Below are positions 17,814 to 55,914 of a stretch of 64,000 nt of DNA, in pieces (positions within the stretch are counted from its first letter, which is position 1; each line of letters starts with the position of its first letter). Below the pieces are notes generated by a model that was given only the letters and a program-made list of their open reading frames with translations, was not told the DNA's origin and made no database searches. Position numbers and translations under genes: made by a program. The DNA comes from a virus (Duplodnaviria; Caudoviricetes): IMG/VR virus record IMGVR_UViG_3300042397_003635, one strand, 5' to 3'.

Positions 17814-18620
17814 TTATTCTTCACTAGCTTTCTTTAATCTTAGAATACCAGCTTGGGCTTCTTTGTAATCACTTACAAATTTTACAGCTCTTTTATCAGA
17901 ATCTTTATCTTTCCAATCACTTAAACTTTCCTTTGTATCTTTTCCATTATGGTGTGGATACGCAAATACAGTCATGTGTCCATCTTTTCTAAAATCGTAA
18001 GTTGCATAAGTTTCTTCACCTTCTGCTGATTCAGTAATAGTATCAAAGTCTTCATCTAATTCTTCATCAGATTCGTCCTCTTCTGGCATTTCTGAAACTT
18101 TTTGAATTGCAGCTTTAAATATTTCAACGCATTCTTCTTTTTCAATTTCCATCTTTTCGCAAGCGATTTCTAAAATTTCTTTTAGTTCATCACTAAACTC
18201 TTCCATAAACATTTCAAGAGCTTCTTCGTCGATTTCTGGAGTTTCTTCTAGATCTGTGTCTTTAATTTCATCAGCTTCTTCTTCGAACATATAGTTTTCA
18301 AATTGAGGAACATGACTTTCTTTTACAATCTTAACTCCCATTGTAGGAATTGCAGTTAAAGGTTCTTCTGTTTTAATTTTAGCAGTACGACTAGGTACAT
18401 CGCTATTAAATGCTTTCCAATAACCATCATAATTGTGGTTTTTTCCGCCATTTTCAAAGTTAGCATCTCTTTGTGCAACATTTGTCCAATCTTTTAAAGA
18501 CTTTCGTTTAGATTTATCAAATGACTCAGTTTCACTAGGTCCACCAAATGATGGAGCTTTCATGTCCATGAATCTCTTAAAGTCTTTAACATCGTTACTT
18601 TTTAGGTTAAAAATATCCAT
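17814..18620 (-). CDS. Acidic hypothetical protein, putative head-internal protein
   Basis: Downstream of tail tube gene; contains VKDFKRF, VKESHVPQFENY and ITES motifs; very E/D-rich centre. Confidence 0.75.
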   Translation of the reverse strand: MDIFNLKSNDVKDFKRFMDMKAPSFGGPSETESFDKSKRKSLKDWTNVAQRDANFENGGKNHNYDGYWKAFNSDVPSRTAKIKTEEPLTAIPTMGVKIVKESHVPQFENYMFEEEADEIKDTDLEETPEIDEEALEMFMEEFSDELKEILEIACEKMEIEKEECVEIFKAAIQKVSEMPEEDESDEELDEDFDTITESAEGEETYATYDFRKDGHMTVFAYPHHNGKDTKESLSDWKDKDSDKRAVKFVSDYKEAQAGILRLKKASEE

Positions 18621-18641
18621 TTTAAAGTGGTTTTTAAATTT

Positions 18642-19232
18642 TTAGAATTGTCCATTTCTTACTTCAGTATAACTATCAGCAATAAAGCTAAAAGTCGCAT
18701 TATAAATTGAATCTGAAGTATAATCCAATTTCATATCTTCAACCAAATTAGTATCTCCATAAACAAATACTGGAGAGAAATTAAATTCTCTATAAACGTC
18801 ACCTGCACGGTTGTGTACTCCAACATAAACTCCGGCTCCGTTTGGCGCATAGTCTTTCTTAAGACCTTGTCTACCAGTCAATGGATCGTATACTAGGTTT
18901 GCCCAAGCTCTAAATAAGTTGTAAACATACATCTCATTAGCATTGTTTAAGTTGACTTCAAAATCAATTGTAAACTTAGCGCCAGTTTCTTTAGGTTTTG
19001 CACCTGCAAAATATCTCTTAGAGAATCTGTAGCTTTGGTCAACTGTTCCACCAGTACCAGCTTGTTCTGGAAGTCCAGTAATCTTTTTTACGTGTTCAAC
19101 TAATAAATCATTAATAGCTGTATTATTGATACTAGAAGGCGGCGTAATAATTACCGTAAACTGGTTAAGGTATAACGGTTCAAATAATTGCTGGCCTACT
19201 TTTGAATTTTTAAAATGTGGTAACCCTGCCAT
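18642..19232 (-). CDS. gp19: Tail tube protein (gp19-like)
   Basis: 196 aa; FEPLYLNQF, WANLVYDPLTGRQGLKKDY, LDYTSDSI, FIADSY pattern typical of T4-like tubes; late promoter upstream. Confidence 0.85.
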   Translation of the reverse strand: MAGLPHFKNSKVGQQLFEPLYLNQFTVIITPPSSINNTAINDLLVEHVKKITGLPEQAGTGGTVDQSYRFSKRYFAGAKPKETGAKFTIDFEVNLNNANEMYVYNLFRAWANLVYDPLTGRQGLKKDYAPNGAGVYVGVHNRAGDVYREFNFSPVFVYGDTNLVEDMKLDYTSDSIYNATFSFIADSYTEVRNGQF

Positions 19233-19252
19233 TTATGTTGGACTTTTTTGTT

Positions 19253-19259
19253 TATTTAT
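19253..19259 (-). promoter_or_regulatory. Putative late promoter ATAAATA
   Basis: GAATAAATAAAC about 21 nt upstream of the tube start. Confidence 0.65.
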
Positions 19260-19267
19260 TCGCTAGA

Positions 19268-20446
19268 TTATGATATATCTCTACGCTCTGTTTCCTCCCA
19301 TTTAGAAATGAGTTCCTTAAAGCGTTTTTCCTTTTCTTCTGGAGTTAGAGCTGCATTTCTTTCATCAAATTCAAATGCATTAATTTGAGCCTTAAGTTGT
19401 TTTGCACTAATTTCACTATATGCCTTAGGCTCCTCCTTTTCAGGCATAGTTTCATTTCCAATAAGCGTCAATTCCAAGGTAGGAACGACCGCAACAATTA
19501 GGTTTCCAGGATAAGATGGATTATCACTATTAAAATCTTCAAGCTTCATATCGTAACTTGCACCAAAAATCTTAGTTAATCCATTTGATGCAGGCGTAAT
19601 TGTAATAGTAAACTTATCAGAATTTGATATTTTATCATCTCCTAAATCTTTAAGCATGTTATTTGACATTAAGTATCTAAAGCTAAATGTCTTAGTTCCT
19701 TTACCCTCTTCAATCATTCGAAGTTTAGACGTTTTAATTGTAACGTAATAATTACAGCAGTCTTCTTCAGATGATTCTTCGATAGTGCACTCTTTTTCAA
19801 CTTCTTCCAGTGTTTTAAACGGTCCAGCTACAAGTTTAACCTTTCCCTTATCTTCAAGGTCAGTTCCAACTAGCGACTGTACAGGTTCAGCTTCTTTTCC
19901 TATTTCAACTTCAATTGAGTGTACAACCTTTTTTTCATCTTCCATTGTTAAACAATAAAAAAACGTTGCCATTCCTGGAGGTAGAAGTTTCTTTTCTTCT
20001 GGTTCGCCTAATAGTTTTTGGGGTTCAGGTCCAGTCAATAACTTTTGACCAGGCTCCTCTTGTTTTGCGTACTGTGCAGCATTATATGGAACCGGCAAAC
20101 CTGGTTTTTGTGTAGTTGCAAGTTCACGACTTCCTTGAACAGCCGGTAAGTTTGATCCACCTGCCGGAAGCTCCAATGCTTCATTTTTGGTAGAAGTTTC
20201 TGCCTTTTTAGCATTAACTTTTTCGCAAACATGTTTATGAATTTCTAATAGTAATTCACGAATCTTTTCTGCACTTGTATACTTAACATAGGTTGAAGTA
20301 CCTTCAGCTTTAACATAATCCAAATCTGGATATAAAGTCATGCTATGCAGAACGGTCTTTTGATCATTCTGATTCCATTTTGGCTCACAGTCTTTGATTT
20401 GCCACTTAAGTTCATGACTTTGGAAAATTTCGCAAATTACGCTCAT
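19268..20446 (-). CDS. Hypothetical protein (392 aa) with short KLL-x-x-PE repeats
   Basis: Long ORF in the late operon; QKLLTGPEP/QKLLGEPEE/KKLLPPG. Confidence 0.75.
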   Translation of the reverse strand: MSVICEIFQSHELKWQIKDCEPKWNQNDQKTVLHSMTLYPDLDYVKAEGTSTYVKYTSAEKIRELLLEIHKHVCEKVNAKKAETSTKNEALELPAGGSNLPAVQGSRELATTQKPGLPVPYNAAQYAKQEEPGQKLLTGPEPQKLLGEPEEKKLLPPGMATFFYCLTMEDEKKVVHSIEVEIGKEAEPVQSLVGTDLEDKGKVKLVAGPFKTLEEVEKECTIEESSEEDCCNYYVTIKTSKLRMIEEGKGTKTFSFRYLMSNNMLKDLGDDKISNSDKFTITITPASNGLTKIFGASYDMKLEDFNSDNPSYPGNLIVAVVPTLELTLIGNETMPEKEEPKAYSEISAKQLKAQINAFEFDERNAALTPEEKEKRFKELISKWEETERRDIS

Positions 20447-20450
20447 TTAA

Positions 20451-20941: not shown

Positions 20942-21295
20942 TTATTTTTGTTTGTTAGCCATCTTAGGGTCAACTGACTTAGTGATAGCTTTTCCTTTGA
21001 TAACTAAATTACCGAAACTAGGATCTACTGACTTAGTGATAGCCTTTCCTTTAGGGTTTGCTTCAGCTAAGTTAGAATTAACTGACTTAGAGATTTTAGA
21101 ACCTTTAGCAGCTTTAAGATCAGTCATTTTAGCGTCAACTGACTTTTTAACGCTAGAACCCTTAGGCATATCTAATTTAGCCATTTTAGGATCTACGCTT
21201 TTTCCTAATTTAGAACCTGTTGCAGGTAATACTGCCAAGTTTTGGTTAACTTTTTCAGTTAGGAACTCTGTGTAAGACAATACTGGGTTTGCCAT
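20942..21295 (-). CDS. Small basic repeat protein with N-terminal CTS-like motif (putative DNA-condensing internal protein)
   Basis: MANPVLSYTEFLTE followed by five K-rich G-x-x-[IVL]-x-KSV repeats. Confidence 0.8.
   Translation of the reverse strand: MANPVLSYTEFLTEKVNQNLAVLPATGSKLGKSVDPKMAKLDMPKGSSVKKSVDAKMTDLKAAKGSKISKSVNSNLAEANPKGKAITKSVDPSFGNLVIKGKAITKSVDPKMANKQK
20945..21217 (-). repeat. Five tandem 17-19 aa repeats (GKAITKSVDPKM-like)
   Basis: GSKLGKSVDPKM / GSSVKKSVDAKM / GSKISKSVNSNL / GKAITKSVDPSF / GKAITKSVDPKM; near-exact DNA duplication ACTGACTTAGTGATAGC. Confidence 0.9.
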
Positions 21296-21523: not shown

Positions 21524-23041
21524 TTATGCTAATTTAGCAAGAGAACCAGATGCCAATGAGAATTGAACATACTGAGTTCCAGGATGCCATCCAGCTTCAA
21601 CCAATGCATATCTTGACTTCATACCGATTTTCGGAGAGAAAGTACCCTCAGAAATAGTTTGAAGAGATTCTGCCATGATGTAAGGCATGAATTTAAGACC
21701 TGGCTCTTCGTCAGCACCTTTACGACCAATTAATACAGTCGCATCGTCAAACTTCAAGTTAGGATCAACGTATACGTTAAGACCGTAAACTTTACCAGCA
21801 GGGTACAATGTACCAGCAGCAGAACCTAAATCGTTGTTGAAAGGAGCAATTGAGTAACCAGCAGCATCAGCCATAGCAGATGCAACTTTAGCACCAACTA
21901 CTGCGAAAGTACCAGCACCAAAACGTGCTCTGTGGTAGATCAAGTTAGCAGATTCTAACATCTTGCTAGCAAGTCTTCTTTGAGCAGTTGTTACGTTTTC
22001 GAAACCACCAGTATAAGTAGCAGCAGATAAGTCTAATGTAGCAGAATAACCTTCAGCTGTTGCAGCTGCAGCAGCGTGAGTTGTTGCTAAATTCTTAACT
22101 TTAGAAACGATTTCTTTGTTGATTGTTTGAGCAAGCTCGTTAACAGCAACATTCTCTAACATAGAGATTGCGTCGAAATTCCAAACTCTGTTAAGATCTT
22201 GGATTTGCTCAACTGTTGCAGAGATAGAAACTTGAGAAGTTTTAGCCTCAACAAACTTAGTGAACATTTTAAGACCCATTTGACGGAATTTAGAAGTTTC
22301 ACCAGCACCTCTATTCATAGATTGAGTGTACTCTTGACCATCTAAGAAAGGACCATACCAAGCAGAAGCTTCAGCTGTACCTGCAGGAGCTGCAGTTGAA
22401 GTGAAACCAGAGATATGATTTTCTAAAGCAGATACTAATTCTACTTCAGCTTCTGAAACAGCAATACCTGCAGCAACCGCTTGAGCAGCAACTGAAGTAG
22501 AAGCGTCTGTACCAGAAATAACTTTGTAGATGTATTTTGCATCTAGACGAGATACACCAACATAAGCAAACTCTCTGTCACCAGTGTTATCTGGAGTTGT
22601 ATCAAGAGTTGCAGTTTTGATCAAATATGGTTCAAACTCACCAGTTACGTTACCACCTTGGTAAACATAATCTAAGTAAGGAAGGAAACCAACTGGAGAG
22701 TCCATAGGAACTACACCAACTAGGTCAAAACCAATAGTTTTTGCTGCTACTTGAATAGCAACTGGCAATAAACTTGGGAATTTATCACCTGAACCATTTG
22801 CACCAGTTGTTGGAGCTAATGGGTTACCGATTCCACTGATAGAACCTGGTTGTTGATAGAATAAACCTGGAGCAACAGCTGATTCGTTGATTGCACCTGC
22901 GTTTTCGAACATTGCGTGATAGTGGCAATAATCTACTAACCAAGGACGTGAATCTGCGTTTACACCATAGCTTTCTAAAACTGGAGCCCAAGTTGACTTA
23001 ACAGAGGCATCGTTTAGTCTTTTAAATACTTTTGTAGACAT
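21524..23041 (-). CDS. gp23: Major capsid protein (gp23-like)
   Basis: LLPVAIQVAAKTIGFDLVGVVPMDSPVG, ELAQTINKEI, GTFSPKIGMKSRYAL; probable maturation site INE/SA. Confidence 0.95.
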   Translation of the reverse strand: MSTKVFKRLNDASVKSTWAPVLESYGVNADSRPWLVDYCHYHAMFENAGAINESAVAPGLFYQQPGSISGIGNPLAPTTGANGSGDKFPSLLPVAIQVAAKTIGFDLVGVVPMDSPVGFLPYLDYVYQGGNVTGEFEPYLIKTATLDTTPDNTGDREFAYVGVSRLDAKYIYKVISGTDASTSVAAQAVAAGIAVSEAEVELVSALENHISGFTSTAAPAGTAEASAWYGPFLDGQEYTQSMNRGAGETSKFRQMGLKMFTKFVEAKTSQVSISATVEQIQDLNRVWNFDAISMLENVAVNELAQTINKEIVSKVKNLATTHAAAAATAEGYSATLDLSAATYTGGFENVTTAQRRLASKMLESANLIYHRARFGAGTFAVVGAKVASAMADAAGYSIAPFNNDLGSAAGTLYPAGKVYGLNVYVDPNLKFDDATVLIGRKGADEEPGLKFMPYIMAESLQTISEGTFSPKIGMKSRYALVEAGWHPGTQYVQFSLASGSLAKLA

Positions 23042-23058: not shown

Positions 23059-25092
23059 TTAGTTGTTTGCTCTTCTTTTTAGAGCGTCGAGGTATGCATT
23101 ACCATAACCTCTTTGATGTTCCGCAACTTTCTCAATCGAGATAAAACCTTCTCTACCTTGGCTTTCGTTGATGTGTTGCGCTGTTTTATTTTGTTTTTCG
23201 AAATAAATTCTTTCATTAACTCCTCTTAAATCTCTGCTCTCCCAGAAGTTTTTAACTTGGTAAGGAGTGTTAAGAACAGTTAAAGAAGCTTGAGCTTCTA
23301 AACGGCTCTTTTCTGCAGGAGTCATGCTTTCAAAAACTTCTTTGAATTTAGCAGGCATGAACTTAATTAAGTTTGGAGTATTTTCTTGTTGTTTGTTAAG
23401 AACTGATTCAATGATTTGGATAACGTCTTCTTCTTTGAAGTAAACTGCACCTGAAAGAGCTTCAATAATAGCAGTTTTTTGAGTTTGATCTAAATTAAAG
23501 AATCTTGATTTATTATCTTCGTTAAGAAGTTTTAAGAATGGATATCTGCTTTCTAATACAGATTTAGCAGAGTTATCTTTGATATGCTTAACAATTGAGT
23601 TAACTGAACTTACAATATCAGAAACATTAGAACCTTCAGAAACTTGATAGTTTACAGACTCATCTAATTTTTCGATTTGGCTAAATGCAGAGGCAGTTTT
23701 AGTAGAAAGACCTACTTTACCTTCATTTAATTCAGTTGCAATATACTCAGAATATTTAATTCCTCTTTCAAGGTTTTCAGCAAGATAGTTAGCGTAACCA
23801 ATAGAGTGCTTTAAGTTTTCAGCAACGTATTCAGTGTATCTGATACCTTGTTCTGATTTTTCAGCAACATACTCAGAATATTGAATTCCTTTATCAAGGT
23901 TTTCTGCTAAGTATTCTGTGTATTTAATATTTTTGTTTACGTTTTCAGCAATATGCTCAGAGTAATCAATTGCATTATTTAGGTTTTCTCCAACGTATTC
24001 AGCATAACCGATACCTTGTTCAACTTTTTCTGCAAGATAATCAGAATAATCAATTACTTTATTAACTTTCTCAGCAACGTGCTCAGAATAATTAATTGAT
24101 TTGTTCATCATTCCAGAAAGGTAATTGTTATATTCAATTACTTTGCTAAGCTCGCTTGAAAGATAGTTAACATACTCAACTAATTGTTCATTAGTTGCAG
24201 GTGTTTGTTCTTCATCTTGTTCAGCATTTGGATCTTCAACCACTGGAGCATCAGCAGGTTGGTCGTCTTCGGTAACTGCGAAGTTATCAACCATTTTATC
24301 TACACTTTCTTTAAGTGCGTCAAACTTGCCTTTAACAAGTTCAGAGTATTGGTTGAACGCTTCTTTCGTTACAAACTCATTAGTCATGTGTTTGTTATTA
24401 TTTTCCATAGTTTGTACTATCTCTTCATTATTTATCTTATAAACTTTGATTGATTCCTCGAGGTTTAAGCTTTCAGAAATATCAACCAATTTATTTACAA
24501 TTGACGTAGATTTAATATTTTCCAAAGATTCGAAAAGCATAGAGTAATTGCTTTGGAAGCTCTCGTTAACAGATCTTCTAAGAACAGCTTCACTGAAACC
24601 AGGTTCAGCTACTAGATCGTATGTGAATATTCTTTGGATTTTTACTTTACCTTCATTCATTACCTGACCAGCGGCTCTTGAAGAAGTTGAAATTGTACAG
24701 CCTGACTCAACTAGAGTTTTTGCAATCTGGCCAGCGGGAGTGTTAAGCAGACGTACTTTAATTTTTACGTTATTAGAATTTTGATCGTACCATAATTTCT
24801 CAACTACGTGAGAAACGTTTTTAAGTGAAACGTCAAAATTTTGAGGGTGGTCTAGCTCACCAAATAATTGACCTCTTTCGATTTTCTCGTTTAGGTATTC
24901 TAGGTGAGGAAGATACTCTGCTTTTTCGTAGATACGGTTGTTGTTATTCTTTGTGTCAAATACTGCACAAACACCTTCCATAACGATATCACCATTATCT
25001 AGTTTTGCTGAGTTTAAACCTTCATTTACTCTTTCTATAATGAAGAGCATATCTGAGGTTTTTGTAATTTCGTTTACGCCTGTAAGGACCAC
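23059..25092 (-). CDS. gp21: Prohead protease (gp21-like) fused to scaffold/core domain
   Basis: MEGVCAVFDTKNNNNRIY, GELDHP, VSHV, STSSRAAG, YDLVAEPGF protease motifs; C-terminal helical repeats; immediately upstream of the capsid gene. Confidence 0.9.
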   Translation of the reverse strand: MVLTGVNEITKTSDMLFIIERVNEGLNSAKLDNGDIVMEGVCAVFDTKNNNNRIYEKAEYLPHLEYLNEKIERGQLFGELDHPQNFDVSLKNVSHVVEKLWYDQNSNNVKIKVRLLNTPAGQIAKTLVESGCTISTSSRAAGQVMNEGKVKIQRIFTYDLVAEPGFSEAVLRRSVNESFQSNYSMLFESLENIKSTSIVNKLVDISESLNLEESIKVYKINNEEIVQTMENNNKHMTNEFVTKEAFNQYSELVKGKFDALKESVDKMVDNFAVTEDDQPADAPVVEDPNAEQDEEQTPATNEQLVEYVNYLSSELSKVIEYNNYLSGMMNKSINYSEHVAEKVNKVIDYSDYLAEKVEQGIGYAEYVGENLNNAIDYSEHIAENVNKNIKYTEYLAENLDKGIQYSEYVAEKSEQGIRYTEYVAENLKHSIGYANYLAENLERGIKYSEYIATELNEGKVGLSTKTASAFSQIEKLDESVNYQVSEGSNVSDIVSSVNSIVKHIKDNSAKSVLESRYPFLKLLNEDNKSRFFNLDQTQKTAIIEALSGAVYFKEEDVIQIIESVLNKQQENTPNLIKFMPAKFKEVFESMTPAEKSRLEAQASLTVLNTPYQVKNFWESRDLRGVNERIYFEKQNKTAQHINESQGREGFISIEKVAEHQRGYGNAYLDALKRRANN
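23719..24180 (-). repeat. Eleven tandem 14-aa repeats (I-x-Y-x-E-Y-[LVI]-A-E-x-x-x-x-x)
   Basis: VEYVNYLSSELSKV ... IKYTEYLAENLDKG / IQYSEYVAEKSEQG / IRYTEYVAENLKHS ... IKYSEYIATELNEG; 11 x 42 nt = 462 nt. Confidence 0.92.
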
Positions 25093-25111: not shown

Positions 25112-25119
25112 TATTTATA
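25112..25119 (-). promoter_or_regulatory. Late promoter TATAAATA for the protease-capsid operon
   Basis: Exact T4 late consensus about 20 nt upstream of the GTG start. Confidence 0.75.
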
Positions 25120-25162: not shown

Positions 25163-26026
25163 CTATTTAGTCTTATTTATTAGGCTTATTAGATCCAGCT
25201 TCTCAGAATCAGTTAGTTTATCGAAATTAGGAACCTTGGTGTGAATTTTAAAGATATAAGAACCTTTATTTTGTGTGCCAGTTGACATTCCTCTACCAGG
25301 AATAGTTATTCTAATGTCATTAAATGACTTAGCTTTGATTGACTTTATTTTAAAATTGGTTCCAGAAACTGAAGTAAAAATAAAATTTTCAATATTAATT
25401 AGTTCATCGAGACTTACTTCTCGATTATCAATAATATTACCTGATACATCAAGAGAAACTCCAGCGGGTAATACAATATCCAATAAAACATACAAATTGC
25501 CAATAAATGCACGGTTAAACATGCTTCCACCTCCAAGTTTTCCATGATTTCCCATATTTTGAAAGGTTAATCTGGAAAAGGCCTTATTGCCATCGAATAT
25601 TAATTGGTGTTTAGTTGTATCTGGGTTAAGATCAACACTAAATCTAATTGGAGAAGATTCTCCCTTTTTTGTGTAAGTAACCTCAATAGTTTTTCCAATT
25701 AACAAATCTTTAAGATCGATTTTTTGGTTAACAACAATGTCTAGATTAAGACCCCAGTTTTGAGTAAAAATATCTTCAGCAGCAAAGCCGCCAAACATGT
25801 CTCTAAGATCTTCAAAGGTTGATCCAGCTGATCCACCTCGATCGTAGTTTTTACGTTTTTCCGAATCTCCTAATACACCATAAGCCTCAGCGATTTCCTT
25901 AAATTTGGATTCGCCGTCTGGATTTTTATCAGGGTGATATTTTACAACAAGCTTTCGGTAAGCCTTTTTAATATCTTCCTGACTGCATCCACGCTCTACT
26001 TCTAGTATATTATAATAGTCTTTCAC
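25163..26026 (-). CDS. dnaJ: DnaJ-family co-chaperone (J domain, no zinc finger)
   Basis: [10 protein letters not shown]...KYHPDKNP...[11 protein letters not shown]; G/F-rich region; C-terminal domain with GRG and GSYIFKI. Confidence 0.9.
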
Positions 26027-37327: not shown

Positions 37328-37503
37328 TTCTTTGTAGTTTGTTTTTTCCAATCGGCGAACGGTTTAATCCAAAATGTTCTATTTGTTTCCTTCTTTAATA
37401 GATCCATAATTGGATTTTCTCCACTTGGATGTTGTATAACCGCATTTTCCAATCTGGTCTTACCTTGGAGATAATCTTTATAGTTTTTCTGAGAAGAATT
37501 CAC
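37324..37503 (-). CDS. 59-aa ORF missing from the ORF track
   Basis: GTG start 20 nt after ATAAATA; VNSSQKNYKDYLQG...FWIKPFADWKKQTTKK; ATGA coupling to the ferritin-like gene. Confidence 0.7.
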   Translation of the reverse strand: MNSSQKNYKDYLQGKTRLENAVIQHPSGENPIMDLLKKETNRTFWIKPFADWKKQTTKK

Positions 37504-37522: not shown

Positions 37523-37529
37523 TATTTAT
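37523..37529 (-). promoter_or_regulatory. Putative late promoter ATAAATA
   Basis: GAATAAATATC upstream of the 59-aa ORF and the CTS-gene cluster. Confidence 0.65.
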
Positions 37530-43103: not shown

Positions 43104-44666
43104 TTGCTAAAGTTTAAGTTAACACCAGACAAAAGATATTTTCAGCTAATACATAATGATCTTAAGAAAGAAGTGGTCGATCTTAAGAACTTCTTTAAGA
43201 AAAGAGCAAAGGGCTATCACTTCAGTCCTCTATTTCAACGTCGCCTTTGGGACGGTTATGACAAGTTCATAGATCGAGAAAACCGAATTGGAGTAGGTCT
43301 TTGGTATCAAATCAAACAATTTAGCCAAATTTATGGTCATGAGATTGAATTAGATGGATTAGATTCTCTACTTAATCTTGAATTTACAAAGGATCAACTT
43401 GATAAATTTGCAAGCGTCTTATTAGATGGTGTGGATCTTACACCATACGATTATCAAATGGAAGCTGCATATCGAGCACTTAAGTTTAAGTTTAGCGCCC
43501 AAGAATTAGCAACTTCTGCTGGTAAAACCCTAATCCTATTTTTATATTTAAGCTTTCTTAAACGCAAAGGAATTATTAATGGCAAAGATAAAAAGGCCCT
43601 TATTGTAGTTCCTAATATTTCGCTAGTTGGCCAAACTGCAGAGAAATTTGTAAAGGACTATCACACTGGATTAATTAACTGGAATATCTTAGAAGTCGGC
43701 GGTAAAAACAAATACTCTGATAAGAAATTTGAAGAAGCCGATCTTGTAATTTCAACATATCAAAGTTTAGCAAAAAGGGACGGAGATTTCTTTAAGAAAT
43801 TTACTGTGCTTTGTGTTGATGAGTGCCATACTTCAAGAGGAGATACCATTAAAGATATTCTCCTAGCTTCAACTAATGTTGAATATAAATTGGGTCTTTC
43901 TGGAACAATTCAAGTAGACGAAGATTTTTCTGACTTCTATAAAATCCAAGAATATATTGGGCCTTTGAGTATGACTCTTAAATCCAGTTTCCTAATTGAA
44001 AACAAACACTCGCCGGATGTTTACATTAAGATTCTTTCCCTAAAATATCCCGAAAACGAACCATTTATTCAAAACTACAAATACATGCAAGAGCATGGTA
44101 AAAGTCAATTCCATCGTATTGAGGACTATGGTAAAAACATGTTCCAAATGGAAAAGGATTTTATTATTTCATATGAACCTCGAGTAGATTTTATTTCAAC
44201 CTTAGTTCAAAAACTTGGTGGAAATACCCTAATCTTATTCATTAATGTAAAGGACAAATACGGCCAGCGGATAAAGGAACGAATTTCCGATTGGAATCCA
44301 AATTCATTTTATATTGATGGCGAAGTAAGTGGTGATGACCGAGCTGAATATAAAGATGCAATGGAAGCTGGGTCTAATGTAACCCTAGTTGCAAGTTATG
44401 CAACCTTTGCGACCGGTATCGACTTAAAGAATGTGCAAAATATTATCTTTGCCGAAAGTTATAAATCTGAAATTACTATTCGCCAAGCAGTAGGGCGTGG
44501 CATGCGTAAACTTGCTGGAAAAAGCAAAGTAACAATTTATGATCTAATCGATGATCTAAATGGTTATATTGTAAAACACGGTAAAGTTCGTGAGAAAATT
44601 TATGAAAAGGAACAGTGGATTGTGTCTAAACACAGTTATGACTTAGGTAAATTCATTAAGGGTTAA
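43104..44666 (+). CDS. uvsW: SF2 DNA helicase UvsW
   Basis: LTPYDYQ, ATSAGKT, VVPNISLV, VDECH, GLSGT, TFATGID, QAVGRGMR. Confidence 0.93.
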   Translation: MLKFKLTPDKRYFQLIHNDLKKEVVDLKNFFKKRAKGYHFSPLFQRRLWDGYDKFIDRENRIGVGLWYQIKQFSQIYGHEIELDGLDSLLNLEFTKDQLDKFASVLLDGVDLTPYDYQMEAAYRALKFKFSAQELATSAGKTLILFLYLSFLKRKGIINGKDKKALIVVPNISLVGQTAEKFVKDYHTGLINWNILEVGGKNKYSDKKFEEADLVISTYQSLAKRDGDFFKKFTVLCVDECHTSRGDTIKDILLASTNVEYKLGLSGTIQVDEDFSDFYKIQEYIGPLSMTLKSSFLIENKHSPDVYIKILSLKYPENEPFIQNYKYMQEHGKSQFHRIEDYGKNMFQMEKDFIISYEPRVDFISTLVQKLGGNTLILFINVKDKYGQRIKERISDWNPNSFYIDGEVSGDDRAEYKDAMEAGSNVTLVASYATFATGIDLKNVQNIIFAESYKSEITIRQAVGRGMRKLAGKSKVTIYDLIDDLNGYIVKHGKVREKIYEKEQWIVSKHSYDLGKFIKG

Positions 44667-45451
44667 CGTATATGACCGTCTGTAATCTCGTCCGCTAAGA
44701 ACTCCATAAAATACCGTTCGGCATTGCGCTCAAATTCTTTATGTTGACGCTGGATTGATTTAAGATCGTCTTCAATTTGATCTAATTTAGCAGATTCTGT
44801 ATCGAACCATTTAATAAGTTCAGCTAATTTATCAGTAATTTCCTTTACTGCATCTTCGTCTTCTACTAAACCAAGTTCAGCAAGACGCTTCCATTCAGGA
44901 CTATTGATTGCGGTAGCAACTTCTGCAATAGTTTCTTCATCATAATACTCTTTAGTCTCTAAATAATCAGTAACAGTTTCTTCTGCATATTCTAGTAGAC
45001 GGTCTGCTCCTAATTCTGGTTCAATATGAACCCAACCGCCGCTATTTCCGCCCCAACCGACTGCATTTACCCAATCATAGGATTGTTCAATATCTTCTTG
45101 AAACATTTCCGCTTGATCTTGTAGCCATCTATACCAAATATCGCTTAGGTACTCTTCATCAAGTTCAATACCAAATTTAGATTCAACTTCATCTGTACTT
45201 GGCCATACATGAACCTTTACATTAAGCGCAAAATAGTCTCCTTTATGGTTGCTATAGCCTCTTCCTCTATTTAAATTCCAATCATCTGAAAATAGTGAAT
45301 CGACTTTAGCCTCAAATAATTCTAGTTTTTTAAGTATGTCCCTTTCTAACAGAAAATCGACAAGCTTATCTTTATAAAAAGCAACTAACGAATTATTGTT
45401 AGCCTTTAAATACTCTCTGCTAAAATTTTCAAATAGTTTAATATGTTTCAT
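44663..45451 (-). CDS. Acidic hypothetical protein with N-terminal CTS-like motif
   Basis: Starts MKHIKLFENF. Confidence 0.78.
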   Translation of the reverse strand: MKHIKLFENFSREYLKANNNSLVAFYKDKLVDFLLERDILKKLELFEAKVDSLFSDDWNLNRGRGYSNHKGDYFALNVKVHVWPSTDEVESKFGIELDEEYLSDIWYRWLQDQAEMFQEDIEQSYDWVNAVGWGGNSGGWVHIEPELGADRLLEYAEETVTDYLETKEYYDEETIAEVATAINSPEWKRLAELGLVEDEDAVKEITDKLAELIKWFDTESAKLDQIEDDLKSIQRQHKEFERNAERYFMEFLADEITDGHIR

Positions 45452-45453
45452 AG

Positions 45454-45705
45454 TTACTTAGATTCAAAATATTCGTTAAATTGTAAAATACTTTCGTTAA
45501 CTGATTGATATGCTGGAACCTTTGCTTTTTCTTTTACTGATGTTGATTTGGGTTGTGCAACAGCTTGTGTCTGTGACACCTTAACTGCTAGTTCAGTAAC
45601 CTTATCCCTAATCGAACAAATTTTTTGATAGTCCTGTTTTGTTAATTGAATCGTTGATTCATTTAGCGTAGACAAATAGTTTAAAAATTGGTCGATTTGC
45701 GACAT
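45454..45705 (-). CDS. Small hypothetical protein with LNE/VNE sites and C-terminal CTS-like motif
   Basis: MSQIDQFLNYLSTLNES...VNESILQFNEYFESK; ATG 1 nt after the upstream stop. Confidence 0.72.
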   Translation of the reverse strand: MSQIDQFLNYLSTLNESTIQLTKQDYQKICSIRDKVTELAVKVSQTQAVAQPKSTSVKEKAKVPAYQSVNESILQFNEYFESK

Positions 45706-46395: not shown

Positions 46396-47826
46396 ATGCA
46401 AACTAAAGAACAATTAGACAAAGAGATTAAACGTCTTAATCTTGAGCAAAACGCTCTAAAAATCTTGATTAACTCGTTTTATGGAGCCTTCGGTAACAAA
46501 TATTTCTATTTTCACGATACAGATATTGCGCAATCAATTACTTTACAAGGCCAAGACCTTATTAAATTTTCAATTAAAGCAGTTAATCACTACTTTACAG
46601 AAAAATGGCATCTAGACACTGAATTACACGAAAAGCTTGGCATATCTAATCTAACGATTAATCAAGTTAAAGAAGAAGCCGCAATTTATACTGACACGGA
46701 CTCATGTTATGTTAGTTTTCATCCAGCAATTAAATCAATTGAAGGTTTTTCTTTAAATGATACAGAAGCTCTTAAGTTTTGCTTAGCAATCAATCGTGAA
46801 AGGCTAAGCGGCTATTTTAGAGCAGCTTTTCAAAAATATGCAACTGCATTTAACACTGATAATCGCCAAGAATTTGAAATGGAAAATCTTTCACGAGCTG
46901 CGATTTGGTGTGCTAAAAAGAAATATGTACTCAAGGTAAGTTATGAAGACAATCCAGCTGAAGAATTATCAGAAAAAGAAAGTCAAGTAGTAAAAGGTCT
47001 TGAAAAAGTTCAATCTTCTTATCCAATTTGGGCAAGAGCTCACCTTGAAAAATTATATGACTTCTTCTTAGATCGTGGCTATGATTTAGACCTTGAAGCT
47101 GAATTAATTCCTAAATTACAAGCGTTACGTGCTGAAATGGAATCTTTAACTCCAGATGATATTAGTTTCTCATTCTCTGTGCGTACTTATGATAAGTATG
47201 TTAAGTGTGAGCATCCTTTAAAATTAGATAAAGGCGTTCCAATCTATACTAGAGCAGCCGCTTATCATAATTTTATGTTAAAGGAAACCAATAATAAAAA
47301 ATACAATCGAGTTATTAGCGGTAAAGTTAAATTCTACTATGCTGCTCAAAACCAATATGATTTTGATATTTTTGCATTTTCTCCAGGCGTTTACCCAGCA
47401 GAGTTTGCAATTCCAATGGATAAAGATCAGCAATTCTTTCGTTTGATTTGCGAACCTCTAAATAAGTTGCTTCTTGCAATGGGATTGCCTCAAATTAATC
47501 CTCAGCTACGTCGTGCAATTGAAGTAGTTAAGCATAAACCTAAAAAAGGTCAAGATATTCAATCTTTCCCAATTCATATTGTAGATTCGGAAACATTTGA
47601 AAATACCTTGGTTCCAGAAGCTCTTCAAGAGTTTATTGCAAATCCAGATTCAGCAATTCCACCTCAATTGATGCCGCAGTACCTAAGTATTGTTTCTAAA
47701 TACGGTTTAAATACGGTAGTTGTTCCAGATGCAGAACTTGCAAAATATATTGATAAAATCAAGAAAAAGAAAGCTTCCAAAGCAGTCATAGTCGAAGAAG
47801 ATGAGCTAGAAGAAGTAGAAGATTAA
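46396..47826 (+). CDS. gp43B: Family-B DNA polymerase, C-terminal subunit (motifs B and C, thumb)
   Basis: EQNALKILINSFYGAFGN (motif B), YTDTDS (motif C), AKKKYVL, VVKGLEKVQSS. Confidence 0.92.
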   Translation: MQTKEQLDKEIKRLNLEQNALKILINSFYGAFGNKYFYFHDTDIAQSITLQGQDLIKFSIKAVNHYFTEKWHLDTELHEKLGISNLTINQVKEEAAIYTDTDSCYVSFHPAIKSIEGFSLNDTEALKFCLAINRERLSGYFRAAFQKYATAFNTDNRQEFEMENLSRAAIWCAKKKYVLKVSYEDNPAEELSEKESQVVKGLEKVQSSYPIWARAHLEKLYDFFLDRGYDLDLEAELIPKLQALRAEMESLTPDDISFSFSVRTYDKYVKCEHPLKLDKGVPIYTRAAAYHNFMLKETNNKKYNRVISGKVKFYYAAQNQYDFDIFAFSPGVYPAEFAIPMDKDQQFFRLICEPLNKLLLAMGLPQINPQLRRAIEVVKHKPKKGQDIQSFPIHIVDSETFENTLVPEALQEFIANPDSAIPPQLMPQYLSIVSKYGLNTVVVPDAELAKYIDKIKKKKASKAVIVEEDELEEVED

Positions 47827-50135: not shown

Positions 50136-51845
50136 ATGGCAGGATTTCTAGACAATATCGGCTTAGGAGGACTTAAATCAAGACTATCAGATTTAAGCCG
50201 AGTTGGTATGAAGTACGAGGATCTTTTAATTAAGAACTCACAATCGATAGGATTTATTGAAAGTCAGCTAATGCAAGCTAGAGGAAGCGCTCTACCCGGT
50301 GGACAAACTGATTCTTTAGCTAGAGCTACAATGGCAATATCAGATACAACATCTGCTCTTAGAACTAAAGCTATTGCATTCTTTCAATTAGATTACGCAA
50401 CAAAAAGAGAAAGACTAAGAGATCTTGCATCAAATGGTGAAATTGAATTTGTAATCGAGTCAATTACCGATGACGTTATTGTATTTGATGAAGATAACCG
50501 TTTTGCATATCCAAATGACCTAGTTGGAGAAATGCTCTATAAAGGAAAAAATAAAGAGCAGCGTCTTAAGTATCAAGAAAAAGTTATTGAAAAATATAAC
50601 GAAAATTTTGAAAGAATCTACAATGCATGGGGTTTCAATGAAGGAATTTCAGCATGGCAGTATTTTTATCAGTGGTTAATTGAAGGACATTTGGCATTTG
50701 AGATTCTTTATGATGATTTACAAAACCCAAGAGAAATTATTGGATTTAAAGAAGTCGATCCATCTACGCTATATCCTCAAATTAAAAAGGACGCAGCTGG
50801 AAAGATCTTTTTAGAATGGGCCCAAAAAGTTGCTGGAGAATCTAAAGTAAGAACCCTTACCGATTCCCAAGTTCTTTACTTATCATATTCAAACCATTTT
50901 AGAACTAAACGTATTTCTTTTGTTGAGCGAATGGTTAGATCATTTAATTTAATGCGTGTTATTGAGCACTCTAAAGTTATTTGGCATACAATGAATGCTC
51001 CTATTCGTTTAACTACTAAAGTTCCAATTGGAAGTAAGTCTCTAAACAAAGCAAAAGAAGATGTTCGTGAATTTGCAAACCAATTAAAGGAAGATATTTT
51101 CTTTGATACTAATACTGGAGAAATCCAAGTAGACGGCCGCCCTAACTTATTATTCTATAAGAATTATATTTTACCGGTAAACGATCAAAACCAAGCAATT
51201 GAAATTGCTCCATTGGAATACGCAGGTCCTAATATGTCAGGATCAGAGCTTCTTAACTATTTCAAAGAAAAGTTAAAGATGGACTCTAAGATTCCTTATT
51301 CAAGATGGGATTCTGCAAATGGCGCAGGTCAATATACAATGAATGCTGAAGGTATTCGTCGTGAAGAAATTCGTTATAATAAATTTGTAACTCGTCTTCG
51401 TTCAGCGTTTAAAGAATTATTGACAAAGCCTCTATATCTTCAAATGTGTCTTGATTTTAAAGATCTAAAAGATGATTATAGATTTAAGAATGCTGTAGGT
51501 ATTAACTGGCATGACGATAACGTATTTGAAGAAATCAAACAACAAGATTTACTTAATAAGCGTCTTGCTACACTTAATGCCCTTAAAGGAGTTGTTGATG
51601 ATGAAGGTAAGCCATACTTCTCTACTGAATACTTGGTTAAAGAGTATTTAAGAATGAGCGATGAGGATCTTCAAAAGAATAAAGATTATATGAATCAAAC
51701 TCCAACTGGAGAGGGTGAAGCTGGAGAAGCTGCAGCAGCCGGAGCAGCACCAGAAGCAGGTTCTGCCCCAGAAGGAGGCGCGGGTGGTGAAGCCGCTGCT
51801 GGTAAAGAAACAGCTAGCGAATTAGGAGCCCCAGGATCTTTATAA
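50136..51845 (+). CDS. gp20: Portal protein (gp20-like)
   Basis: EIEFVIESITDDVIV, WLIEGHL, LNYFKEKLKMDSKIPYSR, IRREEIRYNKFVTRLRSAF, STEYLVKEYLRMSDE. Confidence 0.92.
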   Translation: MAGFLDNIGLGGLKSRLSDLSRVGMKYEDLLIKNSQSIGFIESQLMQARGSALPGGQTDSLARATMAISDTTSALRTKAIAFFQLDYATKRERLRDLASNGEIEFVIESITDDVIVFDEDNRFAYPNDLVGEMLYKGKNKEQRLKYQEKVIEKYNENFERIYNAWGFNEGISAWQYFYQWLIEGHLAFEILYDDLQNPREIIGFKEVDPSTLYPQIKKDAAGKIFLEWAQKVAGESKVRTLTDSQVLYLSYSNHFRTKRISFVERMVRSFNLMRVIEHSKVIWHTMNAPIRLTTKVPIGSKSLNKAKEDVREFANQLKEDIFFDTNTGEIQVDGRPNLLFYKNYILPVNDQNQAIEIAPLEYAGPNMSGSELLNYFKEKLKMDSKIPYSRWDSANGAGQYTMNAEGIRREEIRYNKFVTRLRSAFKELLTKPLYLQMCLDFKDLKDDYRFKNAVGINWHDDNVFEEIKQQDLLNKRLATLNALKGVVDDEGKPYFSTEYLVKEYLRMSDEDLQKNKDYMNQTPTGEGEAGEAAAAGAAPEAGSAPEGGAGGEAAAGKETASELGAPGSL

Positions 51846-52979: not shown

Positions 52980-53186
52980 TTATACAGTTGGCGCTTGCGC
53001 AGCAGCTAACTTTTGCTCTTCTGCTTGTTTAGCAGTAGTAGCTTTGATTTTTTCTCTGATTTCAGTTAATTTAATTTGAGCATCATTAACAACTTTCATT
53101 GCTTCAGCCTCTTGTTGATTTAATGTAACCAATTCAGTTGCTGCATCTTCGTTAACGCTAAAATAGTTTTGGAATGATTTAACCAT
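52980..53186 (-). CDS. Small coiled-coil protein with N-terminal CTS-like motif
   Basis: Starts MVKSFQNYFSVNED; late promoter upstream. Confidence 0.72.
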   Translation of the reverse strand: MVKSFQNYFSVNEDAATELVTLNQQEAEAMKVVNDAQIKLTEIREKIKATTAKQAEEQKLAAAQAPTV

Positions 53187-53205: not shown

Positions 53206-54549
53206 TTATTTATCGGAAATATAGTCCGAAAAAGTTTTTATACGGCTTGTTCCAGAACCTGGATTTGCTCCAAGTTCCTGTCTTCCACCTTTATACATGC
53301 CCCATTGTGCAGGTACCTTTAAGGTTCCACCGACTCTCTGTGGAGCTCGCTCTGGCGGCAAATCATCCATATCTGGATTGCTTTTAGTGCGGTCTCTGAG
53401 TAATTCTGGGGTTAGCAGGTCCTCTTCAATCTTTCCGCCTAATATCATCCAAACCTTTTTAGGATCCTTTCCTTCAGGGATCCCCTGTGAAAAACTATTG
53501 AAATCTTGAGCTAACCAGAACTCTCTCATTAAAGTTCCAGAAACACCATCCTCGTCTCCGTCTGAACCAGTATTTCCTCCAAATTCAGGACGAGCTGTTT
53601 CAATTCGGTTAATTTTAGAGATACTGCCTCTCCACTTTTCCATGGCAGCCCATCTAGGCATGTCTTTATCTGTTGCATAAAGATTAACAACTGTATTTGG
53701 AGCATATTGGGTTTTACCAAGCGCCTCAACAAATTCATATCCACTTCTAACTGGGGTAACATCCGCTAGGTGGAGTTCAACGTTATCAAAATCTTCTAGA
53801 TAATATTCTAAAACTTCCATTGCAGTCTTACCGCTAATACCAGCCATTTCAGTTTTTGAAATAAAAACATGAACTTCATCGTTTTCTTCTGCAATTTTTG
53901 CAATTGCTTCATAGTGACCAGCATGAGGTGGCTTAAATTTACCACTAAATATTCCAACTGTTCTGATATCTAATTTTGGAACTTGAGTGCGACCAATTTT
54001 TCTAGTCTTCATTGTAATTTCTTCAAATTCGTCCTCTAGACTCTTTGCAAGTTCTAGATTTTTACGATCATCGTCATAGAAAGTAAAGTGTCTAAACCCT
54101 TTAGTGATTAGCTTTCGGAAGGCTTCTTTTTTCTTTTCAGCAATAGTTCCTTCAAATCCAAATTCTGGATCGCTAACTGCATAGATTAATTTTGGGTGAA
54201 TATCAATCCCATGGGACAATAGAAATTCTCTGACTAGTTTCTTATTATCTCTAGCTGTAATAATGCCGACAGCCGTCCCAGATTCATAGGCGGAACGTAA
54301 TATATTAAGTACCCATTCTACTAATCTTCCAGCCTTTAAAATATTAGCATCATTAAATTGATTATAGTCTACTTCGTGATGTGGTTCCTTTTCATATTCA
54401 TTAAACTCCTGTGGAGTAAGATCAAAGGTTTCACCAGTAAGTGCATCCTTAACTAGGATCTTTGCATTAGTGACAACTAGCGTGTCATCTAAATCAAATA
54501 TGATAATTGAGTTATCTCTAGAAAATGCCATTTCGTTTACTCTTTGCAC
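53206..54549 (-). CDS. HAD phosphatase fused to HIGH-class nucleotidyltransferase
   Basis: FDLDDTL, IITAR, KKE, FYDDD (HAD); IFSGKFKPPHAGH and VSGTLMRE (NTase); N-terminal VNE, C-terminal IKTFSDYISDK. Confidence 0.82.
   Translation of the reverse strand: MQRVNEMAFSRDNSIIIFDLDDTLVVTNAKILVKDALTGETFDLTPQEFNEYEKEPHHEVDYNQFNDANILKAGRLVEWVLNILRSAYESGTAVGIITARDNKKLVREFLLSHGIDIHPKLIYAVSDPEFGFEGTIAEKKKEAFRKLITKGFRHFTFYDDDRKNLELAKSLEDEFEEITMKTRKIGRTQVPKLDIRTVGIFSGKFKPPHAGHYEAIAKIAEENDEVHVFISKTEMAGISGKTAMEVLEYYLEDFDNVELHLADVTPVRSGYEFVEALGKTQYAPNTVVNLYATDKDMPRWAAMEKWRGSISKINRIETARPEFGGNTGSDGDEDGVSGTLMREFWLAQDFNSFSQGIPEGKDPKKVWMILGGKIEEDLLTPELLRDRTKSNPDMDDLPPERAPQRVGGTLKVPAQWGMYKGGRQELGANPGSGTSRIKTFSDYISDK
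53207..53213 (-). promoter_or_regulatory. Putative late promoter ATAAATA
   Basis: GATAAATAAC overlapping the upstream stop, about 21 nt before 53186. Confidence 0.6.
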
Positions 54550-54567
54550 TGGCCTACTATTTTTTGT

Positions 54568-54574
54568 TATTTAT
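54568..54574 (-). promoter_or_regulatory. Putative late promoter ATAAATA
   Basis: TAAATAAATAAC-AAAAAATAGTAGG, a leader nearly identical to that of the sheath gene. Confidence 0.65.
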
Positions 54575-54622
54575 TTAGCCAGTTATTCAATGTAAATATA
54601 CTAAACCTGGGCTAATAAAAGC

Positions 54623-54656
54623 AAAAAAACGCAAAGCTTCTTGGCCTTGCGTTTTT
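54623..54656. terminator. Intrinsic terminator
   Basis: AAAAACGCAA...TTGCGTTTTT inverted repeat downstream of 54688. Confidence 0.7.
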
Positions 54657-54687
54657 CGATTACCTTCTTCCAATTGGAAGATGTATT

Positions 54688-55914
54688 TTAGTTAAGTGCT
54701 TTTCCTATTCGGGTTGCACCAAGTTGATATTCTTCTGGAGTAATACCCATGGCAGCTGCCTGATCTTCAACTGATAGCGATAATAATTTATCTTGATTTT
54801 GGCTAGTCCAATTTGCAACGATTGCTGCAATTTGTTCAGGTGTTTTTGAGTTATCTGACTCATTTACATCAGAGTTTTCCATTTCCATTAACCCGTTTCT
54901 ATAACAACCGATTGCTTCTGCAACGTATTCATTGTATTCGATTGGAGTTTGATCATTATGGATTTCTAATGCTTCGCTACAAAGTTTTTCACAAACTTCT
55001 TTAATCATTTCGCAAGTTGATTCATAGCAGGCAGATTCGTTATTCCAGCCTTCATTAATTGTCATGCCGTCATCCACCATTTCGTACATACACTTTTCCA
55101 TATAAGCGCAAGCTTCATTAAGATAGCCTTCAAATTGATGTTCTGGATCTGAATCTGCTTCATACATTGAAGCATCTGAATAAGTTGATTCGCATATAGA
55201 TTCAATTAGGTGGTGTGCAGCTTCAGATAACATAGACTTACTTCCATCATGGCAAGTATGACCTTCATTATATGATTTAGATGAACCAAATTCTTCTGGA
55301 TTTTCTCCATCGCCTTCTTCATCCCAATATTCAGCTTCACAGTGTTCTCCACAATCAGAGCAAATATCGCCCATCATAACTGAAGCACCGCAGCAGTTTG
55401 AGGTTGCACCATATTCATAAGCATCGCTTGGATCCCATGATTCATTTGCTTTAGCATGTATTTTAGCTGAATCATATACAGTTTTTAGCCATGATTCCAA
55501 TTCTTTGTTATCGCCAGCGTCTAAATTACTGTATTCCTTTTTGAAAGCTCTAACAAAACTCTTAAAGGTTTTAGATTCCTGTGCCAATAAGTCAATGTCA
55601 GACATTGCACTCTCTTTAATTGCAGCAGGTTTTTTCTTTTTAATAGCGTCAGTTTTAAATGCTTTATAATCTTCAAAGTCATTGTCACCGTCTCCGTCCT
55701 TATCGTACTTTGGATTATATTTTTTCTTTTCATTTATGAATTGCGTAAATCTTAGAACTTTATTTTCAGCGATAGCTGGTTCTTGATCACAAGTTTCGCA
55801 ATCTTCTGTAACCTGAGGGTTACGGCCAGTTTCATTATCAAACTGTTCGTCCTCTGAGTAGTAATTTGGCTTCTTTAGGAAAGCAGGTAAGTCTTTATTA
55901 GAAAATTTTCCCAT
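54688..55914 (-). CDS. Modular acidic Cys-rich protein with CTS-like motif, EF-hand-like loop and many xNE sites
   Basis: IAENKVLRFTQFINEK; DKDGDGDNDFED; SNCCG...ICSDCGEHC; duplicated module of about 48 aa. Confidence 0.78.
   Translation of the reverse strand: MGKFSNKDLPAFLKKPNYYSEDEQFDNETGRNPQVTEDCETCDQEPAIAENKVLRFTQFINEKKKYNPKYDKDGDGDNDFEDYKAFKTDAIKKKKPAAIKESAMSDIDLLAQESKTFKSFVRAFKKEYSNLDAGDNKELESWLKTVYDSAKIHAKANESWDPSDAYEYGATSNCCGASVMMGDICSDCGEHCEAEYWDEEGDGENPEEFGSSKSYNEGHTCHDGSKSMLSEAAHHLIESICESTYSDASMYEADSDPEHQFEGYLNEACAYMEKCMYEMVDDGMTINEGWNNESACYESTCEMIKEVCEKLCSEALEIHNDQTPIEYNEYVAEAIGCYRNGLMEMENSDVNESDNSKTPEQIAAIVANWTSQNQDKLLSLSVEDQAAAMGITPEEYQLGATRIGKALN

Follow-up and report, generated by a model that had tools for sequence, protein, structure and literature searches.

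Do the otherwise unrelated proteins of an uncultured phage share a short peptide that would direct them into the head, as the capsid-targeting sequence (CTS) of bacteriophage T4 does, and can such a peptide be carried at positions other than the N-terminus? The question is raised by a 64,000-nucleotide stretch of DNA, IMG/VR record IMGVR_UViG_3300042397_003635 (the window, to which all coordinates refer unless stated otherwise), which appears to be part of an uncultured T4 superfamily phage of ~260 kb. An initial annotation described about 15 late proteins of the window with a CTS-like motif at N-terminal, internal and C-terminal positions, and every string that it quoted is present in the open reading frame (ORF) named for it. 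The present analysis supports the motif as a real, portable tag, which is probably best explained as the T4 system of capsid targeting and maturation cleavage in a form that is expanded and tolerant of position.

The loose consensus first proposed, [VIM]xx[FY]xx[FYW], is too degenerate to reach significance across the proteome, but its placement is non-random. It occurs 37 times in the 20,734 residues encoded by the window, compared with 28.6 +/- 5.3 times in residue shuffles, which is not a significant difference. Within the first 15 residues of the proteins, it occurs 9 times against 2.4 expected (1 of 1000 shuffles reaches 9), and within the last 12 residues 5 times against 1.3 (9 of 1000 shuffles). 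When a Glu is required 1-4 residues after an N-terminal match, 6 instances are found against 0.78, a number reached by none of 1000 shuffles. The proposed consensus is thus enriched at both ends of the proteins but not overall.

The signal sharpens in two IMG/VR relatives, G2 (216,815 bp, ~85% nucleotide identity, CheckV completeness 84%) and G3 (114 kb, ~98% identity). At the N-termini of G2, the loose consensus is found 27 times against 5.2 expected, a tighter form, [VIL][KR]x[FYW]xx[FYW], 17 times against 0.45, and the tight form followed by a hydrophobic residue, one to three further residues and Glu, 14 times against 0.17; the motif starts concentrate at residues 3-6. A scoring matrix of 10 columns was built solely from the N-terminal tags of G2 and G3. 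The consensus of 43 distinct N-termini reads I-K-x-F-x-x-[FWY]-[LI]-N-E, in which the Glu of column 9, with L/I and N before it, has an information content of 2.9 bits. The fuller form of the tag can be written (M-x1-4)-[IV]-K-x-[FY]-x-x-[FWY]-[LI]-[N/x]-E, an amphipathic stretch of ~10 residues; its helical hydrophobic moment is 0.43, compared with 0.30 for other N-termini. At a matrix score T of at least 14, G2 gives 20 matches and its shuffles none, and G3 adds 12 N-terminal tags that lie outside the window. About 10% of the phage's ORFs appear to carry the tag.

When the strings quoted in the initial annotation are scored with this stricter matrix, about 10-11 of the proteins are well supported and about a third of the examples fall to chance level. 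Ten of the 18 strings score at least 15, a level expected at most 0.07 times per shuffled proteome. Six of these are N-terminal (VLSYTEFLTE, VKPFSEYISL, IKTFEAFAND, IGDFKQFLNE, IKLFENFSRE and VKSFQNYFSV), two internal (VLRFSSFINE and VLRFTQFINE) and two C-terminal (IKTFSDYISD and IKPFADWKKQ). ILQFNEYFES is borderline, with a score of 10.1 at which 1.7 matches are expected. The other seven strings, among them MTFESFIAINE, VKDFKRF, VPQFENY, FPTFNQFF, IMDFMSFY and IDQFLNYLST, do not exceed chance.

In T4, the internal proteins IPII and IPIII carry the CTS MKTYQEFIAE, which the prohead protease gp21 cuts off (Mullaney & Black 1996, cited in PMC9958956 and PMC5694885). According to PMC5694885, it is through the CTS that the internal proteins join the core, and proteases of the gp21 type cleave after Glu; GFP and other foreign proteins can likewise be brought into the core by the ~10-residue peptide (PMC9958956). 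Read directly from the T4 genome, IPII and IPIII start with MKTYQEFIAE and IPI with MKTFKEF. The T4 peptide aligns with the tag column for column, with K at position 2, aromatic residues at 4 and 7, a hydrophobic residue at 8 and Glu at 10, and it scores 9.6 with the matrix even though its Met is penalised in column 0. As judged by this in-register alignment, the tag would be the counterpart of the T4 CTS, in keeping with the likeness first noted. The cutting rule of gp21 is L/I-x-E, and the tag ends in hydrophobic-x-Glu, a site of this type.

Control genomes place the expansion within a group of phages. The capsid protein is nearest, among GenBank phages, to those of uncultured huge phages (LR756500, 37%), Lak phages and the Tenacibaculum phage PTm1 (32%). 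The first 400 kb of LR756500 contain 23 tagged N-termini, of the MKY-IKEYEEFLNE type, against 0.1 expected. N-terminal matrix matches number only 3 in T4 and 1-2 in PTm1. One ORF of T4 that lies outside the ip genes, of 54 residues (T4 coordinates 18966-19130, minus strand), also starts with a CTS-like MKTFKEFIKE. In contigs L015 and L016, which encode a protease-scaffold 32% identical to that of the window, small tagged ORFs lie between the portal, protease-scaffold and capsid genes.

The system therefore resembles that of T4 in having a ~10-residue N-terminal peptide with K at the second position, two aromatic residues three apart and then hydrophobic-x-E, and in combining a gp20/gp21/gp23-type head module with small, fast-evolving and mutually unrelated tagged proteins. 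It differs in scale, with ~25 or more tagged ORFs in 217 kb where T4 has its 3 matches, in the 1-4 residues that precede the tag and the preference for Asn before the Glu (I/L-N-E), in the conserved tags at domain junctions and C-termini, and in a scaffold that forms one protein with the protease and contains tandem repeats like the core of the CTS, no match to gp22 being found by BLASTP. Phages of the phiKZ, 201phi2-1 and SPN3US type offer a second comparison. Their head and ejection proteins are cut by S80 proteases at (S/A/G)-x-E, and the propeptides are mostly longer than 100 residues with no common short motif; 8 of the ~50 head proteins of SPN3US are processed (PMC5694885). These phages likewise have many head-internal proteins that are cut after Glu by a gp21-related protease, with propeptides thought to target the prohead. 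In contrast, the phage described here has a short common motif of ~10 residues that ends in [LI]-[N/x]-E, and its protease scores higher as S77 than as S80.

The initial annotation had proposed that the tag is portable, and this holds up well. When the tag is removed from the 26 tagged proteins of G2, the remainders form 26 singleton families at a threshold of 1e-3. Cargo turnover between clades is almost complete: a homologue of just one of this phage group's 38 cargo proteins is encoded by LR756500, where it too is tagged, and PTm1 has none. The recognisable cargo, as identified by Pfam, includes a peptidoglycan amidase (Amidase_2), a NUDIX hydrolase, a DUF5824 protein and an enzyme with HAD and cytidylyltransferase-like domains, and most of the remaining tagged proteins are orphans. 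The isoelectric points (pI) of the window's tagged proteins range from very acidic, at 4.2, to very basic, at 10.

The six well-supported N-terminal tags of the window are all on the minus strand, as are their genes. VLSYTEFLTE (21254-21283; score 15.3) begins a protein of 117 residues (ORF 20942-21295), is kept in G2 and L011, and belongs to the first gene after the capsid gene. This protein, which has a pI of 10.0 and basic repeats of the form GK-x-I-[ST]-KSVDPKM, is a candidate for an internal protein associated with DNA. VKPFSEYISLLE (34088-34123; score 17.5) is found on a basic DUF5824 protein (Pfam 3.2e-10), the ORF of which extends to 33653. Its VKPFSEY is N-terminal only if the protein starts at MNMY or MY (34135 or 34129), the likely start, and the start of the G2 orthologue, MYVKPFNEY, confirms the shorter form. 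IKTFEAFAND (35247-35276; score 17.0) is on an acidic 117-residue protein (ORF 34932-35285) and is kept in G2. IGDFKQFLNE (40916-40945; score 19.5) is on a 166-residue protein (ORF 40460-40960) with the heptamer ATAAATA, discussed below, 29 nt upstream of its start. IKLFENFSRE (45413-45442), with a score of 23.1 the best in the window, is on an acidic 262-residue protein (ORF 44663-45451) and is identical in G2. Finally, VKSFQNYFSVNE (53148-53183; score 15.3) starts a coiled-coil-like protein of 68 residues (ORF 52980-53186), with ATAAATA 27 nt upstream.

The internal and C-terminal tags, again on the minus strand, are the part of the finding that would reach beyond T4. The internal tag LAE/NKVLRFSSFINE/S (33087-33131; score 17.7) lies between two domains of a 239-residue protein (ORF 32664-33383). 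More than 30 shorter members of the same family (146-164 residues) start with the tag (MKNNYVKPFSIFNE/S and similar), and the longer members have an extra N-terminal domain of ~85 residues ahead of it. In 37 aligned homologues, the residues corresponding to F93, F96 and E99 are at least 90% conserved. An AlphaFold2 model of the 239-residue protein has two confident domains, with the tag in a linker (residues 82-100) of pLDDT below 50, where it is flanked by [IL]-A-E and I-N-E. A Foldseek search of the model against the PDB returned nothing at E of 0.001 or below; the N-terminal domain weakly resembles a small SH3/Tudor-type barrel. The second internal tag, IAE/NKVLRFTQFINE/K (55729-55773; score 19.3), is in an acidic protein of 408 residues (ORF 54688-55914) and is kept in G2. 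The two internal tags are near-identical, and 5 of their 12 identical residues use different codons; recent copying of the DNA was rejected on this ground, and selection is indicated to act on the peptide.

Given that the short homologues of the 239-residue protein start with the tag, the internal tags are best explained, from these alignments, as N-terminal tags that were captured by fusion of an upstream domain and then kept, rather than as a separate design. The claim that internal and C-terminal tags go beyond the T4 pattern is thus upheld as to their conservation in homologues, but the internal ones probably derive from the ordinary N-terminal arrangement.

The C-terminal tag IKTFSDYISDK, followed directly by the stop codon (53209-53241; score 17.3), ends a 447-residue protein with HAD and cytidylyltransferase-like domains (ORF 53206-54549). 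Fifteen homologues retain it, the most distant at 45% identity, with its Phe invariant and the linker before it unalignable. Homologues at 45-50% identity end in NE/SKVL[KR]FxDFxKK, such that a cleavage-type site lies just before the tag, and in one partial homologue the tag (MYKLKNIEQFVNE) is N-terminal rather than C-terminal. A second C-terminal tag, IKPFADW with the final residues KKQTTKK (37327-37368; score 16.2), is found on a basic ORF of 59 residues (37324-37503) that is 88% conserved in G2, where the tag is identical. The TGA stop of this ORF overlaps the ATG of the next gene (36908-37351, minus strand), which encodes a DUF5856 protein, as AAATGATT, an arrangement kept in G2; an A6 run lies 20 nt upstream of the overlap. 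Although a -1 shift at the A6 is formally possible, the ATGA overlap and its conservation led to the rejection of a frameshift fusion, and the two are treated as separate genes whose translation is likely to be coupled.

Two weaker candidates complete the set. A small protein (45457-45696, minus strand; ORF of 91 residues, likely start MSQ at 45705) carries IDQFLNYLSTLNE, a variant tag, at its N-terminus and SVNE/SILQFNEYFESK at its C-terminus; with the strict matrix, the former is weak and the latter is the borderline match with a score of 10.1. In the G2 orthologue of this protein, the "C-terminal" tag is followed by a further 70-residue domain, another instance of a tag made internal by domain fusion. 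The C-terminal candidate IMDFMSFYKNLGKN (35289-35330, minus strand) of a 540-residue protein (ORF 35286-36908) has a chance-level score, and its G2 version, ILDFTSFYKNL, is better conserved than the protein as a whole (57% identical). Taken together, the homologues support the conclusion that the C-terminal and internal positions are evolutionarily conserved, not accidental. T4 Alt, which is reported to be processed by gp21 at both its N- and C-terminal ends (PMC5694885), provides a precedent for C-terminal trimming of a packaged enzyme. No C-terminal targeting motif has been described for Alt, whereas in this phage the motif at C-termini is that of the N-terminal tag.

If the tag is to be removed as in T4, a protease of the gp21 type is needed, and one is encoded within the head module. 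Pfam identifies a gp20-type portal (Portal_T4, 1.5e-66; 50136-51845, plus strand), a gp23-type major capsid protein (Gp23, 2.5e-47; ORF 21524-23041, minus strand) and a gp21-type protease. The last is fused to a scaffold-like region in a 677-residue ORF (23059-25092, minus strand), of which the N-terminal ~200 residues are the serine protease (Peptidase_S77, 7.4e-12; S80, 7.2e-8). This part matches the structure of T4 gp21 (5JBL, E of 8.5e-5) and retains the catalytic His and Ser motifs, GELDHPQN compared with GELNHPPR in T4 gp21 and STSSRAAG compared with GVSSRGLG. With a tag that ends in Glu and a protease that retains its catalytic residues, the suggestion of gp21-type cleavage fits the sequence. 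The ORF as a whole has 37 [ILV]xE sites against 17.6 expected, a twofold excess such as would be expected for a scaffold that is chopped up. Scaffold function appears to lie in the C-terminal 480 residues of the protease ORF, as the PTm1 annotation says likewise.

Residues 301-455 of the protease-scaffold consist of eleven tandem 14-residue repeats (23728-24192, minus strand) with the core I-x-Y-[ST]-E-Y-[VIL]-A-E-[NK], which resembles both the core of the tag and the YQEFIAE of T4. A tag-core matrix gives 6 matches in the 677-residue ORF, 5 of them in the repeats, compared with 1.06 in shuffles (maximum 5 in 500). Similar repeats are present in the scaffolds of G2, L016 and LR756500, and the PTm1 scaffold has different, Trp-rich repeats and no tag expansion. 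In the genomes compared, three clades combine tags with repeats of this kind, and one, represented by PTm1, lacks both. The 408-residue protein that carries an internal tag also contains PIEYNEYVAE (54916-54945), a near-perfect scaffold-repeat unit with a repeat-matrix score of 22.6, which reads AIEYNDYVKE in G2. A complex prediction of the tag (residues 1-40 of the 262-residue protein) with the repeats (residues 296-460) gave a score of 0.00 and no verdict in a run without controls, and counts neither for nor against binding.

The capsid protein has a candidate maturation cleavage site of its own, A-I-N-E at residues 50-53 (22883-22894, minus strand), ahead of the Gp23 domain, which starts at residue 89. 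The capsid N-terminus has W-x-P-[LV]-LE and FEN in common with T4 gp23, which reads FLTE/AEIGG, and the AINE position is comparable to the FLTE/A site, such that cleavage there would be expected by analogy. A copy of ~40 residues of the capsid segment that lies just after AINE (22778-22885) is found near the C-terminus of the 540-residue protein (35364-35471); the two are 53% identical (E of 3.8e-9), and the copy is conserved in G2, G3 and G4.

The tagged proteins had been assigned to the late class, and a shared promoter element bears on this claim. The exact T4 late promoter, TATAAATA, has 3 copies in the window, none of them before a tagged gene, and as it lacks any association with these genes it was dropped in favor of the heptamer ATAAATA. 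One ATAAATA (25112-25118, minus strand) lies 26 nt upstream of the start of the protease-scaffold gene. Others precede the sheath gene (6032) and tagged genes at 37523, 40983, 53207, 54568 and 55936, and for sheath, protease-scaffold and many of the tagged genes, the distance from the element to the start is 25-29 nt. The heptamer is depleted over both strands of the window (25 copies against 37 expected), and about half of the copies lie 12-32 nt upstream of gene starts. It precedes 12 of 26 tagged genes in G2 compared with 26 of 226 others (p = 5.5e-5), and 9 of 18 in G3 compared with 12 of 150 others (p = 3.2e-5). ATAAATA is probably the core of a late promoter. The late assignment thus gains from an element common to sheath, protease and tagged genes, but not from the exact T4 promoter sequence.

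The reading that is favored here extends the T4 system as follows. The tagged proteins would be made late and would dock by means of the tag onto the scaffolding core of the prohead, formed by the C-terminal part of the protease-scaffold with its eleven Y-x-E-Y-[VIL]-A-E units. Once the shell is complete, the gp21-type serine protease would cut after the terminal Glu of the tag and at [ILV]-x-E sites of the scaffold, which would remove the tag and free the cargo inside the head, and some of the cargo would then probably be delivered with the DNA. Because the tag would act as a linear docking peptide on a flexible tether, it could also work at a domain junction or C-terminus, where the cleavage site would often lie on the N-terminal side of the tag. 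By analogy with T4, the tagged proteins would be encapsidated, cleaved, retained in the virion and injected. Within this proposal, the docking on scaffold repeats is specific but less well supported.

Several observations weigh against this extension of the T4 system. The clade is uncultured and known from sequence alone. Several tags have no Glu at the canonical position (for example, IKTFEAFANDDFE and IKLFENFSRE). The promoter TATAAATA is rare and has no association with the tagged genes, and BLASTP of T4 proteins against G2 at 1e-4 found no homologue of gp55 or of gp22. A reverse search with a scaffold-repeat matrix does not return the N-terminal tags as top matches, and the likeness of tag and repeat is confined to the [FY]xx[FY][ILV]xE core, with a different register upstream; tag and repeat are therefore alike, not identical. 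Moreover, many of the tagged proteins are strongly acidic (pI 4.2-5.2), which suggests that some may be degraded core components rather than retained cargo. The T4 proteins IPII and IPIII are basic.

A stronger form of the docking proposal holds that the tag is a free-standing unit of the scaffold repeat, [FY]-x-x-[FY]-[ILV]-x-E, such that cargo co-polymerises with the eleven repeats and the tag serves as a position-independent address that is erased by the same protease that dismantles the scaffold. This idea is tentative and should be considered doubtful on balance.

Among the alternatives to the expanded T4-type system, the one that survives best takes up the acidity of the tagged proteins. 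They might be auxiliary parts of the prohead core that are co-assembled, chopped up and expelled like gp22, gp67 and gp68 of T4, with no injected toolkit. Many of them are indeed very acidic; the 408-residue protein has 14 [ILV]xE sites against 6.0 expected in addition to its PIEYNEYVAE unit, and the head genes have small tagged ORFs on either side, a position taken in T4 by gp67 and gp68. However, several tagged enzymes (the HAD/cytidylyltransferase-like, NUDIX and Amidase_2 proteins) have no obvious role in assembly, most tagged proteins have no excess of [ILV]xE, and the cargo turns over quickly between clades, unlike assembly components. As a general explanation this is unlikely, although some acidic, [ILV]xE-rich tagged proteins, including the 408-residue protein, may be consumable core components rather than cargo.

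It is less probable still that the tag is a recognition peptide for another machine, such as DnaJ or ClpB-like chaperones of the phage, and serves in folding, disaggregation or turnover. Short aromatic-rich peptides are typical chaperone ligands, and the gene order is suggestive. A full DnaJ (J domain, 4e-26, plus DnaJ_C) is encoded directly upstream of the protease-scaffold gene (25163-26026, minus strand), and a ClpB-like protein with a double AAA+ module adjoins the tagged genes (55939-57930, minus strand). The chaperone proposal does not account for a tag that is in register with the T4 CTS and ends in a Glu that fits the protease, for tagged ORFs inside the head module of distant relatives, or for the likeness of tag and scaffold repeat. 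The DnaJ and ClpB-like proteins may instead be chaperones of assembly.

It is very improbable that the tag has no function and reflects accidental hits of a loose pattern, unrecognized paralogy or, at the 5' ends of genes, a bias in codons or initiation. The loose consensus does lack enrichment over the proteome as a whole (37 against 28.6), and five or six of the listed examples are at chance level. At N-termini, however, the motif exceeds shuffles by 20- to 80-fold, an excess that PTm1 does not have; no paralogy is left after removal of the tag; the tag is conserved at C-termini and at domain junctions, to which the initiation of translation is irrelevant; and near-identical tags differ in synonymous codons.

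The genomic context is that of a T4-like phage remote from those in GenBank, in that a megablast of the head region against GenBank phages gave no match. The same proteins are found on IMG/VR contigs of up to 262 kb; metagenomes 3300042569 and 3300044700 are among the sources of the contigs. BLASTP of T4 proteins against G2 returned further matches, reported as T4 coordinates, which from the T4 map we take to be most likely terminase, sheath, gp4, UvsX, UvsW, gp41, gp46/47 and polymerase. The window has a G+C content of ~34% and start codons in an A-rich context without Shine-Dalgarno sequences, which, together with the nearest relatives, suggests that the host is probably a member of the Bacteroidota. 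The DNA polymerase is apparently encoded in separate pieces, with a C-terminal part of 476 residues in the window (46396-47826, plus strand) and a piece of 459 residues that matches T4 gp43 in G2 (140057-141436 of that contig). The window also encodes an Endonuclease_NS protein (4e-37), a non-specific DNA/RNA nuclease with a signal-peptide-like N-terminus (ORF 59610-60275, minus strand).

The principle of a T4-type CTS is already known. What is new is its scale, at about 10% of ORFs, the conserved placements at junctions and C-termini, and a protease-fused scaffold with CTS-core-like repeats; a search of the literature on the capsid-targeting sequence found nothing on the tags of this clade. 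The T4 CTS is a textbook device known from a handful of proteins, and here a T4-like device appears to mark ~1/10 of the genes in a phage of ~260 kb, and in a relative of 462 kb it is found on 23 genes or more. If the expanded T4-type system is the correct explanation, then a simple scan of the genome would suffice to list the proteins brought into the host by these uncultured phages, natural C-terminal and junction tags, unexplored in T4 work, would become available for study, and the scaffold repeats would become a candidate docking partner. Should the tag also prove to be a scaffold-repeat unit across the clade (this group, that of L015/L016, and LR756500 with other huge phages like it), then the proteins packaged and injected by a large group of uncultured Bacteroidota phages, tens of them per genome, would become predictable from sequence, and the unit would constitute a modular tag for protein delivery.

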